In this document: in pieces, positions 27,676 through 52,210 of the stretch
Layout: every line of letters begins with the position of its first letter
How positions within the stretch are numbered: position 1 is the first letter of the stretch
Assembly (NCBI GenBank): GCA_964196275.1
Contig: CAXMSN010000092.1
Location: 1,296-65,295, forward strand
Direction: 5' to 3'
DNA: 64,000 nucleotides
DNA from: an uncultured Kiloniellales bacterium
Lineage (GTDB): Bacteria; Actinomycetota; Acidimicrobiia; Spongiisociales; UBA5794
Position numbers and translations under genes: made by a program
The notes under the pieces: generated by a model
The model's input: the letters and a program-made list of their open reading frames with translations, nothing else
What the model was told of the DNA's origin: nothing
The model's database searches: none

Positions 27676-28827
27676 ATGACCGAGGACCGATTCGAGACGG
27701 TCGCGATCCATGCCGGTCAGGACCCGGACCCGGCAACGGGGGCAGCCGTTGTACCGATCTATGCAACGTCGACCTATGTTCAGGAGGCGCCCGGCGTCCA
27801 CAAAGGCTATGAATACTCTCGGACCGACAACCCAACCCGGACAGCGCTGCAGACGCAGATCGCTGCACTCGAAGGTGTGGATCTTGGGACTGACGGAGGC
27901 TGTGTGGCCACAGCATCCGGTCTCGCCGCGACCGCTCTCATCGGGTACCTGCTCGCCCCTGGAGACCACATCGTGCTTCCCGACGATGCCTACGGCGGCA
28001 CGTTCAGGCTGATCGCACAGGTGCTCGCGAGCCATGGCATCCTGTGGACGGCGGCAGATCTCACCACGAGCGCTGGTATCCAGTCCGCGGTGAGACCTGA
28101 AACGAAGCTCATCTGGATCGAGACGCCGACGAATCCACTCCTTCGAATCGTCGACATCGGAGCAGCCGTCGCCGCAGCGAAGAGCGTCGGGGCCAAAGTC
28201 GTGGTCGACAACACGTTCGCCACGCCATACCTGCAGCAACCATTGGCACTCGGGGCTGACATGGCGATGCACTCATCGACCAAGTATCTCGGTGGGCACT
28301 CGGACGCTGTTGGCGGTGCGATCGTTACGAACGACCAGGACCTGTACGAGCGGCTTCGATTCCTCCAGAACGCCACTGGGCCGGTGCCGGGGCCGTTCGA
28401 TTCGTATCTGATGCTCCGTGGGATCAAGACGCTCGGTGTGCGGATGGACCGCCACTGCTCGAATGCGGAAGCCATCGCTGCGTTCCTTGCATCCGATGAC
28501 AGGGTCGACCAGGTTTGGTACCCCGGTCTCGAATCAGATCCCGGCCACGCACTGGCGAGGAACCAGATGTCACAGTTCGGAGGGATGGTGTCGTTCACGC
28601 CAAAGGCTGGCGTCGAGGCTGCGAACGAGCTCGTCACTAGGACGAGGCTGTTCTTCCTTGCGGAGTCGCTTGGCGGTGTCGAATCGCTGATCGAGGTACC
28701 GGCCGTGATGACCCACCTGTCCGTTGAGGGCACAGATCTTGAGGTCCCGGCCTCGCTTGTTCGTCTCTCCGTTGGCATCGAGCACGTGGACGACCTCATC
28801 TCCGACCTCGATCGAGCACTTGGCTGA
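27676..28827 (+). CDS. Cystathionine gamma-lyase / gamma-synthase (Cys/Met metabolism PLP family)
   Basis: Trimmed to MTEDRFETVAIHAGQ. Contains YSRTDNPT and HSSTKYLGGHSD (PLP Lys). Confidence 0.9.
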   Translation: MTEDRFETVAIHAGQDPDPATGAAVVPIYATSTYVQEAPGVHKGYEYSRTDNPTRTALQTQIAALEGVDLGTDGGCVATASGLAATALIGYLLAPGDHIVLPDDAYGGTFRLIAQVLASHGILWTAADLTTSAGIQSAVRPETKLIWIETPTNPLLRIVDIGAAVAAAKSVGAKVVVDNTFATPYLQQPLALGADMAMHSSTKYLGGHSDAVGGAIVTNDQDLYERLRFLQNATGPVPGPFDSYLMLRGIKTLGVRMDRHCSNAEAIAAFLASDDRVDQVWYPGLESDPGHALARNQMSQFGGMVSFTPKAGVEAANELVTRTRLFFLAESLGGVESLIEVPAVMTHLSVEGTDLEVPASLVRLSVGIEHVDDLISDLDRALG

Positions 28828-29857
28828 CGCCGACTCGTCCTCGCTGCCGGTCGCGGCCCTCGGATGGTCGAGTGAGTGGGACGTCAAACGCGCTGAGGCA
28901 CAGTCGTCTGGCAGCCCCGCTCGAGTAGTGCGCCATGATGGCGTCAAGGTGCTTGTCGCTGATGGGGTATCAGTGGCACACGCCGGATTCCCCAGATCGA
29001 TGAACCTCGCGGTCGGCGACTGGGTGCTCATTGAGAACGAGACCGTCACCTCAGCGCTCGACAGATCTACGGTGCTCGAGCGAGATTCTGTCGAATCGGG
29101 GAAGCAGGTGATCGCCGCCAACGTCGACATCGTCCTCGTGATGTTCGGTGCTGACCGCCCACTCAGGAGAAGGAAGGTGCTTCGGTTCGTCGCGTTCGCC
29201 GGCGACATCGGCGCCCAGCCGGTGGTCGTCTTGGCCAAAGCGGATCTCGCTCCCGACGCCTCTGCGCTGGCCGAAGAACTTCGATCGTGGATCGGCGATA
29301 TATCCGTTGTCGCCACATCAGTGGAGACAGGTCAGGGCCTCGACGAGATCTTCGGAAGGCTGTCCGGGGCGACAGGGACGTTGATCGGCGAGTCCGGCGC
29401 AGGGAAGTCCTCGCTTGTCAATGCCCTGATGGAGGACGAGGTCGCATGGATCGGCGACGTACGCGAGGGAGATGCCAAAGGGCGCCACACGACGACACAC
29501 CGGGAACTGCATCTCCTCCCCGGCGGCGGGATGATCATCGACAACCCCGGCATCAGGGCGCTGGGGCTGTCGAGCGAAGGTGAAGGCGTCGAGGCGCTCT
29601 TCGCTGAGTTGGAGGAACTTGCGCTGACGTGTCGCTTCAGGGACTGCAGCCATCGAACCGAGCCGGGCTGTGCGATCCTCGGTGGCGTCTCAGACGGAAC
29701 GATCGAGCGTGACCACTGGAGCGCTTATCTCCTCTTCACGGCCGAGCAGGCCGCCGCTGGCAAGAGGGCAGAGGATGCTGAACGTGCCGAGAAGGCGCGA
29801 CAGGACGCTGCCTCTGCGAGGAAGGCGAGAGAGGGCTACGAGCCGAAGACCCCGTAG
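28820..29857 (+). CDS. rsgA: Ribosome small-subunit-dependent GTPase A
   Basis: AANVDIVLVM, VVLAKADL, GESGAGKSSLVNAL and the zinc knuckle CRFRDCSHRTEPGC. No in-frame ATG lies after the upstream gene, so a TTG at 28820 is proposed. The start is uncertain. Confidence 0.8.
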   Translation: MADADSSSLPVAALGWSSEWDVKRAEAQSSGSPARVVRHDGVKVLVADGVSVAHAGFPRSMNLAVGDWVLIENETVTSALDRSTVLERDSVESGKQVIAANVDIVLVMFGADRPLRRRKVLRFVAFAGDIGAQPVVVLAKADLAPDASALAEELRSWIGDISVVATSVETGQGLDEIFGRLSGATGTLIGESGAGKSSLVNALMEDEVAWIGDVREGDAKGRHTTTHRELHLLPGGGMIIDNPGIRALGLSSEGEGVEALFAELEELALTCRFRDCSHRTEPGCAILGGVSDGTIERDHWSAYLLFTAEQAAAGKRAEDAERAEKARQDAASARKAREGYEPKTP

Positions 29858-33447: not shown

Positions 33448-33536
33448 GACCGTGGGAGGTTAGAAGTGAGGGTTCGATAGCGACCGTGATCTGTGTGCGT
33501 GGAGTCCGACCGATGTCGACGCGGTACGCTGCTTTC

Positions 33537-35204
33537 ATGTCGAAGAAGATCCACTCCCAAGATGTAACGATCGGTCCTGCTCGGGCCGGTGCCAGGGCGA
33601 TGCTGCGAGCAGTCGGCCTCAGCGAGGACGATTTCGCCAAGTCACAGATCGGCGTTGTCTCAGCGGGCAACGAGGTCACGCCGTGCAACGTGACCGGGCC
33701 CAAGCTTGCAGGCTTCGCAAAGATCGGCGTCAGAGAGGCCGGCGCTGTGGGCCTCGAGTTCGCGACGATCGCCGTCTCGGACGGTATTTCCATGGGTCAC
33801 GAGGGGATGCGGGCTTCTCTGGTGTCGCGTGAAGTCATCGCCGACAGCGTGGAACTGGTCATGCATGCGGAGCGCTTCGACGGGATGGTGTCGATCGCAG
33901 GGTGCGACAAGTCGCTTCCAGGCATGCTCATGGCTGCAGCACGGCACAATCTGCCATCCGTCTTCCTCTACGGAGGTTCGAGCTTGCCCGGCAACCTCGA
34001 TGGCAAGGACATCTCGATCGTCGACGTGTTCGAAGGGATCGGTGCCCACTCCGAAGGCTCGATCTCAGACGAGCAACTGCTCCGCATCGAGCAAGCAGCA
34101 TGCCCGGGGGTTGGGTCATGTGCCGGCATGTTCACCGCAAATACGATGGCTTCGGTTGGCGAGGCGATCGGTATGTCTCTGCCAGGGTCGGCCTCGGTGC
34201 CAGCGGTCGATCCAAGGCTTGATGATTACGCCCACCAGTCCGGCGAGGCGGTCGTTGCGCTCCTGGAGGCTGGCATTACGCCCCGCGACATCATGACGCG
34301 TGAGGCTTTCGAGAACGCGATCACGACGGTGATGGCACTCGGTGGCTCGACGAATGCCGTTCTTCACCTGATGGCCGTTGCCTACGAAGCCGGCGTCGAC
34401 CTTACGCTCGAAGATTTCGACGCGATCTCGCGCAGAACGCCGCACATCGGAGACATGAAACCGTTCGGGAAGTACCACATGGTCGACCTCGACCGCATCG
34501 GCGGCGTTCCGGTCGTGCTGAGGGTGTTGCTGGACGCCGGGCTTCTCCACGGTGATGTGATGACCGTTACGGGAAGAACGATGGCCGAGAATCTCGCCGA
34601 CGTGGTGGTTCCTGAGGATCAGGACGTTCTTCTCCCGATCTCAGATCCGCTCGCTACCGAGGGAGGCATCGCTGTACTGCGCGGCTCGCTTGCGCCAGAA
34701 GGTGCGGTTGTCAAGATCGCCGGAGTCGAACTCGATGTGTTCGAGGGCAAGGCGCGGGTGTTCAACGATGAACAGCACGCCCTCGAGGCTCTCTACGCGC
34801 ACGATCTCAAGCATGGTGACGTTGTGATCATCCGCTACGAGGGCCCGAAGGGCGGCCCTGGCATGCGCGAGATGCTCGCCATCACTGCGGCGATCAAGGG
34901 TGCGGGACTCGGCAAGGACGTGCTGTTGATCACCGACGGGCGGTTCTCCGGTGGAACGACCGGTTTGTGTGTCGGACATGTGGCGCCCGAGGCCGCAAAC
35001 GGTGGCCCGATGGGCCTCATCGAGGAAGGCGACACAGTCCGAATCGACATCCCGAACCGCAAACTCGACATCCTCATCGATGACGATGAACTCGCTCAGC
35101 GCAGAGAAACATGGGAACCAATCCCACCGCGTTACACAAGGGGCGCGCTCGCCAAGTACGCCAAGCTCGTTGGATCAGCTGAATCGGGCGCGGTTCTGTC
35201 CTAG
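33537..35204 (+). CDS. ilvD: Dihydroxy-acid dehydratase
   Basis: [27 protein letters not shown] and similar motifs. Alternative starts lie at 33513 and 33486. Confidence 0.95.
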
Positions 35205-35225
35205 GCAGACGGCGGGCAACGCTTC

Positions 35226-35426
35226 GTCCTCCCTGAGAGGGAGGACGGGCGAGCGTAGCGAGCCAGGAGGGTGTTGGTTACCGGAGAACATTGGACCTGC
35301 AACATCCCCCTGCATCGTCCCTGCGCTTCTCTGCCGCCCGATATCCAGCCGCTCCGGGTTCGCAGGCTCACAGTCCCCCCTGCATCGTCGCTGCGCTCCT
35401 CTGCCGTCCCCCCTAAAGGGAGGACG
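35226..35426 (+). repeat. Structured intergenic repeat, copy A (contains an internal duplication)
   Basis: Opens with hairpin GTCCTCCCT-GAG-AGGGAGGAC, then GGGCGAGCGTAGCGAGCCAGGAGGGTGTTGG. Two copies of CCCCCTGCATCGTC(C/G)CTGCGCT(T/C)CTCTGCCG follow. It ends with hairpin CGTCCCCCC-TAAA-GGGAGGACG. Homologous to copies at 50312 (inverted) and 52027. Confidence 0.85.
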
Positions 35427-35485
35427 AACGGAGTGCTGGTCGGCGGTCCGTGGAATATCGCCCCCTTCACGCCTACGCTTCCACC

Positions 35486-35749
35486 ATGCATCTATCGATT
35501 GAATACTGCGCCTCTTGAGGCTACACAGACCGTGCCGTGCGCATGGCTGAAGCGATACTCGGCAAGTTCGAGCATTACATACAGGACGTCACCTTGATCC
35601 CGTCGAAAGGCGGAGTCTTCGAGGTGATCGCTGGAGACGAGCTCGTGTTCTCGAAGAAGGAACTCGGACGGCACGCTGAGATCGATGAGGTGCTCGACGC
35701 TGTCGACGCCGTCGTCGGCCCAGTGCCGGCCCCACAAGCTTCTTCCTGA
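35486..35749 (+). CDS. SelW/Rdx-family protein, candidate selenoprotein (in-frame TGA at 35516-35518)
   Basis: The ORF track starts at GTG 35537. The same frame upstream reads ATG-MHLSIEYCAS-[TGA]-GYTDRAVRMAEAILGKF..., which restores the family CxxU/CxxC motif. Downstream, LIPSKGGVFEV..DELVFSKKELGRH matches the Rdx fold. Confidence 0.7.
35526..35549 (+). promoter_or_regulatory. Candidate bacterial SECIS stem-loop
   Basis: CAG(A)CCGUGC - loop CGUGC - GCAUGGCUG gives 9 bp with one bulged A. The apical loop contains GU about 20 nt 3' of the UGA. Confidence 0.4.
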
Positions 35750-35810
35750 CACGTTCGGCGGGCTGGTCTGCGGATGAGCAGTACCGGCGGTCGCGCATAT
35801 CCTTTGGGCC

Positions 35811-36002
35811 ATGCCGATCGGCCATTCCAACACCATCCTCGTTACCGACCTTCTTTCGCATGACGGTCCGTACGTCCATGTAGCAGACAACTTCGTTGCT
35901 GCCTCATGTGCGGGCTGTGGCGTGGCGCTGGCTCATGATCCGCGATATGGCGAGTGGGGTGCGTTCTGCTCCGACTGTTGGCCAGAGGTTCGATCGGCGT
36001 AG
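35811..36002 (+). CDS. Small hypothetical protein with a CxxC...CxxC zinc-ribbon-like motif
   Basis: 63 aa. Contains SCAGCGVAL...FCSDCWPEV. No family recognised. Confidence 0.4.
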   Translation: MPIGHSNTILVTDLLSHDGPYVHVADNFVAASCAGCGVALAHDPRYGEWGAFCSDCWPEVRSA

Positions 36003-36007
36003 CCCGG

Positions 36008-37576
36008 TCAGTCGACCCAGACCGGCAATTCCCGGTCCACAGCGACAGCGTTTCCGTCGACGAACGTCTCGATCACCTGTGCGTCCCGTACTTCTTGGGG
36101 TGAAGCGGCAGTGATATTGGTGTCGACAACCACGAGGTCAGCCGCGCTGCCTATCGCCATTGGCGGACGTTCTCGGATCGAACCAGCAGCGCCTTCGGTG
36201 AACAAGCCAAGCGCCTGCCTGCCCGATAGTGCCTCGTTCGGGTTGATGCCATGTCGGTCCATCGCGGCGGCGATACCCCACAGCGGATGTGGTGGCTCCA
36301 CGATGCAGTCTGAAGAACCTGCGACCTTGATGCCTGAATCGAGCATGGCCTTGAACGGGTAGACCCACTCCATCCGTTCCTCCCCAACTCTCGCCTCGAT
36401 CCACTCCGACTCTGAAGCAAGGAAAGCCGGTTGGACGACTGCCGTGGCACCTGATGCGGCGAATCGTGCGATAACCGAAGGGCTCGCCATCGAAACATGC
36501 TCCATTCGGAGATCCTCAGAATGGGAACCAGCCGCGATGAGCCCTTCGAAGACATCGAGCACACTGCTCACTGCTCGGTCACCTATCGCATGGATGGCGA
36601 CCATGCCTCCGAGAGCGAGGCTGTGTCGTGAGACCTCGATGTCGGCGTCCGTGAGCCGATATGTGCCGGTGGTCCCGCTATCGGAAAACGGGTCGCACAT
36701 GGCGGCCGTGTGTCCACCGAGGCTGCCATCGGCGAATCGCTTCACCCCGAGCCACCGCAGACGCTGACCTGCTCCGGTCATCATCTGGGCGGATGCAGTC
36801 AGATCGTCAGGCGTGGATGCGATCGATAACGCGTGCACCTTGATCGGAAGGTCAGGGGCGACTTCCCTCCACAGCTGAGATTCCGCAGCGAGCTTCTCGA
36901 ACGGGCTCTCCCCGTAGCCGACCATCGCCCCGATCGAGGTGATGCCGAGACCCGCGAGCTTGGTCATGCCGTCGACCAGCCTGTTCGGTGCGAGCGCATC
37001 ACCCCGAGCAAGCGCTGAAGAGATCAAACCTGTGGCCGTCTCCCTGAGCACTCCGGTTGGTTCCCCTCGCTCATCCCTGTCGATGAGCCCACCATCGGGA
37101 TCAGGAACGGATTCGTCGATATGCGATGCCGCAAGTGCCTTGCTGTTCGCAACGGCGACATGGCCGCAGTACCGGTAGATGACTGCCGGGCGGTCCGGAA
37201 CGGCCCGGTCGAGGTCCTCCCTCGTTGGAAGTCTGTGCTCGCGCAGCGACTCGTCGTCGAATCGGGTGGCGACAATCGGGTATCCGGGACGAACTGATCT
37301 GGCGAACGTTGCGAGTCGGTCCACCAGATCGTCGATGGAAACCGCAGATTTCAAAGAGCAGCCAGAGAGGAGAGCGGCATACGGAATCGCATGGATGTGG
37401 GCATCTCTGAATCCAGCGCTTACAAAAGCGCCATCGAATGCGAGGACGCGGTCGCCACTTCGCTCGATGTCGGATCGGTCCCCGATCGCTGCGATGAGCC
37501 CGTCGTCAATCGCGATCGCGTTCCCAACAGTCCCGGCTGCTGACACGACGGCGTCCGACGTGATCAGCGTCCTCAT
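36008..37576 (-). CDS. Amidohydrolase-family metallo-hydrolase (Amidohydro_3-like)
   Basis: Trimmed to MRTLITSDAVV. Contains GFRDAHIH (metal site) and later HAIGDRAV. The upstream extension is Arg-rich junk. Confidence 0.85.
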   Translation of the reverse strand: MRTLITSDAVVSAAGTVGNAIAIDDGLIAAIGDRSDIERSGDRVLAFDGAFVSAGFRDAHIHAIPYAALLSGCSLKSAVSIDDLVDRLATFARSVRPGYPIVATRFDDESLREHRLPTREDLDRAVPDRPAVIYRYCGHVAVANSKALAASHIDESVPDPDGGLIDRDERGEPTGVLRETATGLISSALARGDALAPNRLVDGMTKLAGLGITSIGAMVGYGESPFEKLAAESQLWREVAPDLPIKVHALSIASTPDDLTASAQMMTGAGQRLRWLGVKRFADGSLGGHTAAMCDPFSDSGTTGTYRLTDADIEVSRHSLALGGMVAIHAIGDRAVSSVLDVFEGLIAAGSHSEDLRMEHVSMASPSVIARFAASGATAVVQPAFLASESEWIEARVGEERMEWVYPFKAMLDSGIKVAGSSDCIVEPPHPLWGIAAAMDRHGINPNEALSGRQALGLFTEGAAGSIRERPPMAIGSAADLVVVDTNITAASPQEVRDAQVIETFVDGNAVAVDRELPVWVD

Positions 37577-50311: not shown

Positions 50312-50441
50312 CCGTCCTCCTTTCAAGGGGGACGGCAGAGGAGCACAGCGACGATGCAGGGGGATGTCGCAGCCCCAAGATTCCAGGTTGCCAACACCCT
50401 CCTGGCTCGCAAGCTCGCCCGTCCTCGCTCGCAGGGAGGAC
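50312..50441 (-). repeat. Structured intergenic repeat, copy B (inverted relative to A and C)
   Basis: Its reverse complement aligns with copy C. The first about 54 nt (hairpin 1 through CCAGGAGGGTGTTGG) has 1 mismatch, and the last about 58 nt (ACATCCCCCTGCATCGTCGCTG..GTCCCCCTTGAAAGG.GGACGG) has 2 mismatches. The central 20-30 nt differs. Confidence 0.9.
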
Positions 50442-52026: not shown

Positions 52027-52210
52027 GTCCTCCCTGCGAGGGAGGACGGGCGAGCTTGCGAGCCAGGAGGGTGTTGGGGGGGAAGTGCCTTGGCACCGTG
52101 ACTCTGCAACATCCCCCTGCATCGTCGCTGCGCTCCTCTGCCGTCCCCCTTGAAAGGGGGACGGAGGTATAGCGGTCTTCTGAAAGGGGGACGAAGGTAT
52201 AGCGGTCTTC
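52027..52210 (+). repeat. Structured intergenic repeat, copy C, with a 30-nt tandem duplication at its 3' end
   Basis: Opens with hairpin GTCCTCCCT-GCG-AGGGAGGAC, runs through ...CAACATCCCCCTGCATCGTCGCTGCGCTCCTCTGC, and ends with hairpin CGTCCCCCT-TGAA-AGGGGGACG. TGAAAGGGGGACG(G/A)AGGTATAGCGGTCTTC then occurs twice (52151-52180 and 52181-52210). Confidence 0.9.

Follow-up and report, generated by a model that had tools for sequence, protein, structure and literature searches.

A predicted SelW-like selenoprotein gene with an in-frame TGA and a SECIS-like hairpin in an uncultured member of the Acidimicrobiia

Bacterial SelW-like selenoproteins of the CXXU type have been known since 2005, and the gene described here adds one in an uncultured lineage, leaving established knowledge on selenoproteins and recoding unchanged. 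The protein has in common with mammalian SELENOW the Rdx fold family, the motif YC-x-x-U-GY (VVYCGAUGYK in the human protein) and, later in the chain, an FEV...SKK stretch. Eukaryotic SECIS elements are located in the 3' UTR and have a different structure (PMC1088965, Figure 7), whereas the element of our gene lies inside the coding sequence, directly after the UGA. The prokaryotic SelW-like selenoproteins were catalogued by Zhang and Gladyshev (PMC1088965, PMC1794560 and, for GOS, PMC2398784). In the Sargasso Sea, CXXU SelW-like proteins formed the most abundant selenoprotein family with 48 genes, and SECIS-like hairpins were described for them (PMC1088965); a survey of bacterial genomes added ten more SelW-like selenoproteins and put forward Sec as the ancestral state of the SelW-like family (PMC1794560).

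The gene was detected in a stretch of uncultured bacterial DNA with a length of 64 kb, referred to as the window in the following. It resembles the catalogued prokaryotic CXXU proteins in several features, namely the same domain with a CxxU at the N-terminus, the same arrangement of a UGA and, directly behind it, a small stem-loop whose apical loop contains a G, the same scarcity of Cys forms among close relatives and the same misannotation by gene callers. It differs from them in its host, which belongs to the uncultured Acidimicrobiia, a class absent from the lists of PMC1088965, PMC1794560 and PMC2398784, although SelW-like selenoproteins were reported from Actinobacteria in the definition of that time. 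Further differences are the clade-specific register of the SECIS-like hairpin and a conserved neighbourhood consisting of ilvD, the Rdx gene and a small ORF with four cysteines. In comparison with the E. coli fdhF-type SECIS and the bSECIS consensus (PMC13188914, Fig. 2), our hairpin is likewise a stem-loop within the coding sequence, 3' of the UGA, with a small loop carrying G and then U, but it shows no sequence resemblance and its stem is short (6 + 3 bp); it represents a candidate SelB site. Taken as a whole, the sequence data make it very probable that the gene encodes an 87-residue Rdx/SelW-like selenoprotein with a CASU redox centre, the decoding of Sec being aided by the hairpin at 35526-35549. 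The features of the locus are as follows.

35486..35749, plus strand: coding sequence of the predicted SelW-like/Rdx selenoprotein, 87 codons including Sec11, plus stop (from translation, Pfam Rdx and TIGR02174)
35486..35488, plus strand: start codon ATG, shared by 60 of 81 copies at the corresponding position
35507..35509, plus strand: TGC, encoding Cys8 of the CxxU redox motif; Cys in 79 of 79 unique copies
35516..35518, plus strand: in-frame TGA, the predicted Sec11 codon; TGA in 82 of 82 copies, aligned to Cys in the homolog P0119 and in Rdx proteins of the PDB
35526..35549, plus strand: SECIS-like hairpin, -10.8 kcal/mol, in agreement with the bSECIS model
35537..35545, plus strand: false starts GTG 35537 and ATG 35543, used by ORF finders and gene callers, both within the hairpin
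35747..35749, plus strand: true stop, again TGA (from translation of the frame)
35811..36002, plus strand: 63-aa ORF located 61 nt past the Rdx stop, with four conserved Cys (CxxC...CxxC) and the sequence MPIGHSNTILVTDLLSHDGPYVHVADNFVAASCAGCGVALAHDPRYGEWGAFCSDCWPEVRSA

Read from ATG 35486, the frame gives MHLSIEYCAS, passes the TGA at 35516-35518 and goes on with GYTDRAVRMAEAIL; its complete post-TGA part, up to the second TGA at 35747-35749, is GYTDRAVRMAEAILGKFEHYIQDVTLIPSKGGVFEVIAGDELVFSKKELGRHAEIDEVLDAVDAVVGPVPAPQASS. The redox motif IEYC-A-S-U-GY corresponds to residues 5-13 of the translation and is thus N-terminal. Translation confirmed the frame MHLSIEYCAS-TGA-GYTDRAV that the original prediction had read upstream of the annotated start, and also its statement that the ORF track begins at GTG 35537 and loses the redox centre, the mechanical ORF list giving a gene of 70 aa from this GTG. 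In public assemblies, an identical Rdx gene is called from ATG 35543 with 68 aa, so that automatic callers drop the first 17-19 codons of this gene. Over 12.9 kb the window shows 99.86% identity to contig CAXMUF010000032.1 of the MAG GCA_964196555.1. A truncation by gene callers had likewise been foreseen, and it extends to the relatives: the best approximately 118 of 190 database homologs all have 61-70 aa and are called downstream of the motif, several of them carrying the name "selenoprotein W-related protein". Fragments devoid of the catalytic centre are thus what the databases contain for the Rdx gene and virtually every close relative, in about 118 clusters and in no fewer than 434 genomes at the species level.

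Translation would initiate at ATG 35486. At the UGA (35516-35518) termination would not occur; the hairpin at 35526-35549 would recruit SelB-GTP-Sec-tRNA(Sec), leading to insertion of Sec, and translation would continue until the ordinary stop, TGA 35747, is reached. The protein would probably act as a thiol/selenol oxidoreductase via a Cys-Sec selenenylsulfide, with Cys8-Ala-Ser-Sec11 as its redox centre.

For profile searches, the U of the read-through product was written as C. The product aligned with positions 2-73 of the 74 positions of Pfam Rdx (PF10262), scoring 75.1 bits (E = 5e-21, cutoff 22.6), while the called, truncated ORF covered only positions 18-73 and scored 45.5 bits. The proposed match to the Rdx/SelW N-terminus hence holds over a nearly complete profile. 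The protein also passed the NCBIfam model TIGR02174 (CXXU_selWTH) with 56.5 bits against a cutoff of 34.2. With 79.7 bits it did not reach the cutoff of 88 of the NCBIfam equivalog NF041051 (SelTWH_Campy), and judged by these scores it is a relative of NF041051 outside that specific equivalog. Six solved bacterial Rdx structures (3DEX, 2FA8, 2OJL, 2P0G, 2OKA, 2OBK) align from residue 3 onwards, and their IxYC-xx-C falls on IEYC-AS-U. In these Cys-form proteins, which include SAV_2001 of Streptomyces (3DEX) and Atu0228 (2FA8), the similarity spans residues 3 to about 65 with E-values of 1e-8 to 3e-4; they differ from our protein in having Cys in place of Sec and a length of about 100-108 aa. 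A thioredoxin-like fold is predicted for the 87-residue protein from its similarity to the solved Rdx structures.

A scan with one genome per species revealed 434 loci with a gene for a relative, of which the best 80 were fetched. The patterns used for retrieval sit downstream of the TGA and thus did not select for it. All of the 82 copies compared (80 other genomes, the best of the 434 loci) display TGA at this position, and never TGC, TGT or TGG. The hosts are mostly Acidimicrobiia, together with other Actinomycetota, Chloroflexota and one Kroppenstedtia; the genomes most similar to the window are labelled Acidimicrobiia or Actinomycetota. In the proposed check of the TGA column against Cys-form relatives and the six solved Rdx structures, the column aligned to Cys in both. 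One such relative, P0119, reads CAPCGY with TGC at this codon and is 53% identical, forming a Sec/Cys pair with our protein.

The reading frame upstream of the TGA is conserved as well, [I/L]EYCxx-TGA-[G/N]Y being kept in all 80 related genomes. Homologs lacking the upstream frame, which the original prediction had named as evidence against itself, were looked for in these genomes, as were disruptions of that frame, and neither was found. The codon equivalent to Cys8 is TGC in 71 and TGT in 8 of the 79 unique copies, the Ser codon at -7 is represented by six and the Ala codon at -2 by four synonymous codons, and the equivalent of the start codon lies 10 codons upstream of the TGA in most copies. 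Among 37 clade members, the entropy by codon position between ATG and TGA was 0.44/0.08/1.00, compared to 1.72/1.78/1.61 before the ATG, where the sequence is unconserved and shows no codon periodicity. The former pattern is the signature of a translated sequence under purifying selection, and codon periodicity is seen on both sides of the conserved TGA. An in-frame stop occurs within 20 codons upstream of the ATG equivalent in 35 of the 80 loci.

Two minor observations concern the set of homologs. In locus L017 (1662-1799), the Rdx frame ends at a TAG 138 nt past the Sec codon, the usual distance being 204-234 nt, and this copy may be a pseudogene or the result of an assembly error. Four loci (L008, L028, L059 and L067) carry near-identical Rdx genes of the Acidimicrobiia type in MAGs labelled as Armatimonadetes, Acidobacteria, Gemmatimonadales and Bacteroidota; these labels are probably due to binning or labelling errors.

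Genes for selA, selB, selD and tRNA-Sec were found neither in the 64-kb window, which contains no tRNA of any kind, nor on the contig (39 kb) of the MAG that is 99.86% identical. ARAGORN detected no tRNA-Sec in 1.2 Mb comprising the window plus the loci, and phmmer searches of the window and the loci with SelA, SelB and SelD of E. coli gave a single match, a selD gene in L038 (404-1456, minus strand), located about 9 kb from the Rdx gene on the same contig. This selD reads SHGAG-TGA-ACKLGP, its TGA at 1418-1420 corresponding to a predicted Sec at the position of the catalytic Cys17, and a hairpin with a GUU loop follows. The database entry for this selD, P0121, is a fragment of 322 aa. Among its 120 best database relatives, most are 322-329 aa long, with a query coverage of about 92-94%; being short at the N-terminus, they point to the same truncation, and Sec-form SelD thus appears to be widely miscalled in these lineages. 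According to a 2026 preprint, selA/B/C/D and a Sec-form SelD are present in all 84 complete genomes of the Actinomarinales, an order of the Acidimicrobiia. The Rdx gene itself predicts a full Sec-insertion machinery in this organism, and its presence in the genome is plausible. A correction of the Rdx and SelD gene calls would bear on how selenium use is estimated in uncultured Acidimicrobiia and Chloroflexota.

A scan of the window for TGA read-through ORFs near Cys, combined with coding statistics, yielded no credible second selenoprotein gene. One CxxU-like ORF (29051-29653, minus strand) was rejected; it is antisense to a longer ORF (28712-29857, plus strand), which is called as a Cys/Met-metabolism PLP gene in L001.

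Apart from its predicted recoding, TGA is the commonest ordinary stop in the window, where it ends 25 of the 38 long genes; it also ends this Rdx gene, and it serves as the terminal stop in 41 of the 82 homologous Rdx genes. A reassignment of TGA in the genetic code was rejected on account of its being the commonest stop codon of the window, and since TGA ends ordinary genes as well as this one, the way in which the internal TGA is decoded must be set by its local context. The UGA might be read without selenocysteine, either by near-cognate Trp or Cys tRNAs or by Cys carried on tRNA-Sec, giving CxxW or CxxC. The DNA of this genome examined here, the 64-kb window, in which no Sec machinery was seen, would agree with this; however, a change from TGA to TGG, TGC or TGT would then be neutral or better, and yet every copy from three phyla keeps TGA. 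As the column is also the catalytic Cys/Sec position of the family, a Sec-form selD is present in relatives, and the window uses TGA as its principal stop, read-through of this kind is highly improbable. It is hardly credible either that the TGA is a real stop, with a functional product of 68-70 aa from GTG 35537 or ATG 35543 and the upstream 10 codons left as a remnant or acting as a leader peptide. Every public gene call has the truncated form, but the truncated product would have neither the redox motif nor the first strand, its Rdx score is 30 bits lower, and the 10 upstream codons are in frame and under purifying selection at the protein level in 80 genomes. Moreover, homologs do not keep the downstream Met as a start codon, and the column of GTG 35537 is Ser in most homologs (AGC or AGT in 41 of 79), as in the recurring RAVSMV.

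For the preferred reading, insertion of Sec at the UGA, the structure of the RNA downstream is of particular importance. Positions 35526-35549 fold as (((.((((((.....))))))))) with 9 bp, including one G-U pair, and the same hairpin, with its energy of -10.8 kcal/mol, is obtained as the MFE structure when the 45 nt following the UGA are folded. The lower stem is formed by 35526-35528 and 35547-35549, followed by the bulged A35529 and an upper stem of 35530-35535 and 35541-35546; the apical loop CGUGC (35536-35540) presents its G-U at 35537-35538. The stem starts 7 nt and the loop 17 nt after the UGA. Folding thereby reproduced the 9-bp stem, bulged A and CGUGC loop that had been described from the letters. 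The bSECIS model demands a loop of 3-9 nt whose first or second position is a G, an upper stem of 4-16 bp, a distance of 16-37 nt from the UGA and an MFE of no more than -7.5 kcal/mol (PMC13188914). With a loop of 5 nt, an upper stem of 6 bp, a G at loop position 2, a distance of 17 nt and the energy given above, the window hairpin conforms to the model throughout. The bacterial SECIS geometry originally claimed for it therefore stood, in agreement with all four criteria of the PMC13188914 model and accompanied by constraint at the RNA level.

The model was passed by 50 of 78 real sites, compared to a rate of 14% both for synonymous shuffles (223 of 1560) and for random TGA triplets of the window (38 of 275), and the loop is located 17-22 nt past the UGA in 77 of the 78 real hairpins. 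The 45 nt following the UGA did not fold more stably than synonymous-codon shuffles (mean z -0.5, with -0.3 for a control segment). Against dinucleotide shuffles, the window hairpin reached z = -1.6, 19 of 200 shuffles folding as well. Taken on its own, the stability of the hairpin is unremarkable; with the whole-segment MFE test being non-significant, tests specific for geometry and for silent sites were used in its place. Rfam gave no match at gathering thresholds for the whole window and none up to E = 10 for 35450-35650, as expected from the fact that Rfam has no general bacterial SECIS family.

An ungapped alignment starting from the UGA (window 35516-35569 plus homologs) revealed the hairpin in two registers that differ by clade. 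Register A comprises the core Acidimicrobiia including the window, with stem columns 14-20 pairing with 26-32. Its stem is 96.7% paired among 47 clade members and shows two compensatory pairs; it is nearly invariant, and its covariation is accordingly thin (2 pairs, 4 cells). In this register, codons +4 to +10 have a mean third-position entropy of 0.23, compared to 1.13 for the other codons of these sequences (Mann-Whitney p = 5.5e-4), and the Arg codon at +5 is CGT in 51 of 77 copies, though among the CGN codons of the window CGT is the least used. Register B includes other Actinomycetota, Thermoflexus and other Chloroflexota, and Kroppenstedtia, with stem columns 20-24 pairing with 30-34. 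Here, 99.2% of the cells pair, three of the five pairs are compensatory, and none of 500 shuffles reached the covariation score. Its columns 21 and 33 join third codon positions in the combinations GCC..ACG (10), GCG..ACC (8), GCC..GCG (5), GCU..GCA (2) and GCC..GUG (1), all of which are Watson-Crick. The swap from C-G to G-C is silent on both sides and can therefore not be produced by selection at the protein level. Together, these alignments indicate that the hairpin at 35526-35549 is under selection at the RNA level. Counted in columns after the UGA, the loop occupies 21-25 or 25-29 depending on the register, with G22-U23 lying in the loop or in the stem, respectively. The two registers would fit a clade-specific co-evolution with SelB.

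As a control, eight Cys-form Rdx genes were used, consisting of P0119 and seven genes from plasmids or chromids, mostly of Alphaproteobacteria, while three haloarchaeal loci that did not match the motif regex were left out. The expectation that Cys forms lack the hairpin turned out to be true for P0119, which has no qualifying hairpin (best -3.8 kcal/mol), but false for five of the eight, which passed the bSECIS model at the same place (11.5% for their own shuffles); these five are closely related, so that the sample is small and non-independent. In L093-L098 (Azospirillum, Shinella, Methylobacterium, Sinorhizobium and Microvirga), a stable hairpin is found 18-19 nt past the TGC or TGT at the Sec-equivalent codon, formed by the codons of a conserved R-A..M-A peptide (R-A-G-W-M-A). 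It may be the relic of a former SECIS, a side effect of protein coding at high GC content or a structure of another kind. With five of eight Cys forms carrying a hairpin, its presence alone does not separate Sec from Cys forms, and the SECIS assignment is based on the specificity tests of the bSECIS model and on RNA-level selection, not on the Cys-form control.

These Cys-form hairpins, located at the equivalent place, are also a reason to consider that the selenoprotein is real while its hairpin is mainly a by-product of coding for R-A-V-x-M-A, or has another role, with SelB recognising a different or more extended element. An overall MFE no better than that of synonymous shuffles and a register that varies among clades would suit this as well. 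We nevertheless regard it as unlikely, given that in the clade of the window silent third positions are frozen over exactly the hairpin codons, that silent sites covary in the other register, that real sites pass the model 4.5 times as often as synonymous shuffles of the same protein, and that the distance between loop and UGA is kept in all copies but one. In GC-rich coding sequence, a match to the bSECIS model is by itself weak evidence, and it is the frozen silent sites and the silent-site covariation that are informative. The hairpin is accordingly retained in our preferred reading as the putative element for Sec insertion, a function that would involve binding of SelB.

The gene order around the locus is LytR-family (minus), ilvD (plus, 33486-35204), Rdx (plus), the 63-aa ORF (plus), Amidohydro_3 (minus), inositol monophosphatase (minus) and an Lnt-like gene (plus). 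Within 1.5 kb of the Rdx gene, ilvD is found in 33 loci and the amidohydrolase in 35. Homologs of the 63-aa ORF were identified in 42 loci, in all cases within 1.5 kb of Rdx and in 39 of the 42 on the same strand, the gap between the two genes being 28-91 nt where the ORF follows directly. No Pfam or NCBIfam family was found above threshold for the 63-aa protein; its own family has 30 representative clusters among 1.84 billion proteins, two distant members not adjoining an Rdx gene, and an AlphaFold2 model was unreliable (pLDDT 53). It is conceivable, if rather doubtful, that in the core Acidimicrobiia the Sec-containing SelW-like gene and the four-Cys protein form a two-gene unit, the latter being a dedicated redox partner or substrate; if true, this would open a way towards the function of SelW/Rdx proteins. 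The linkage is equally well accounted for by general synteny, since ilvD and the amidohydrolase are conserved neighbours too and the distant members of the family do not lie beside Rdx.

A promoter and terminator scan of 35150-36100 found nothing. The spacer between ilvD and the Rdx gene displays some repeats. An intergenic repeat of about 30-60 nt with the core CTGCATCGTCGCTGCGCTCCTCTGCCGTCC, which resembles a REP or MITE element, occurs in four copies in the 64 kb, where none would be expected by chance (35306-35339, 35376-35409, 50330-50359 on the minus strand and 52117-52146). Two tandem copies lie just upstream of the predicted selenoprotein gene, and three of the copies are followed by a hairpin of the CCGTCCCCC..GGGGGACGG type. 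At 35223-35247, 20 nt past the ilvD stop, a perfect 10-bp hairpin, CGTCCTCCCT-GAG-AGGGAGGACG, is present, which is terminator-like and carries no T-run. A 12-nt arm of this hairpin recurs in inverted orientation at 35417-35428, the arms thus bracketing the repeat-rich spacer.
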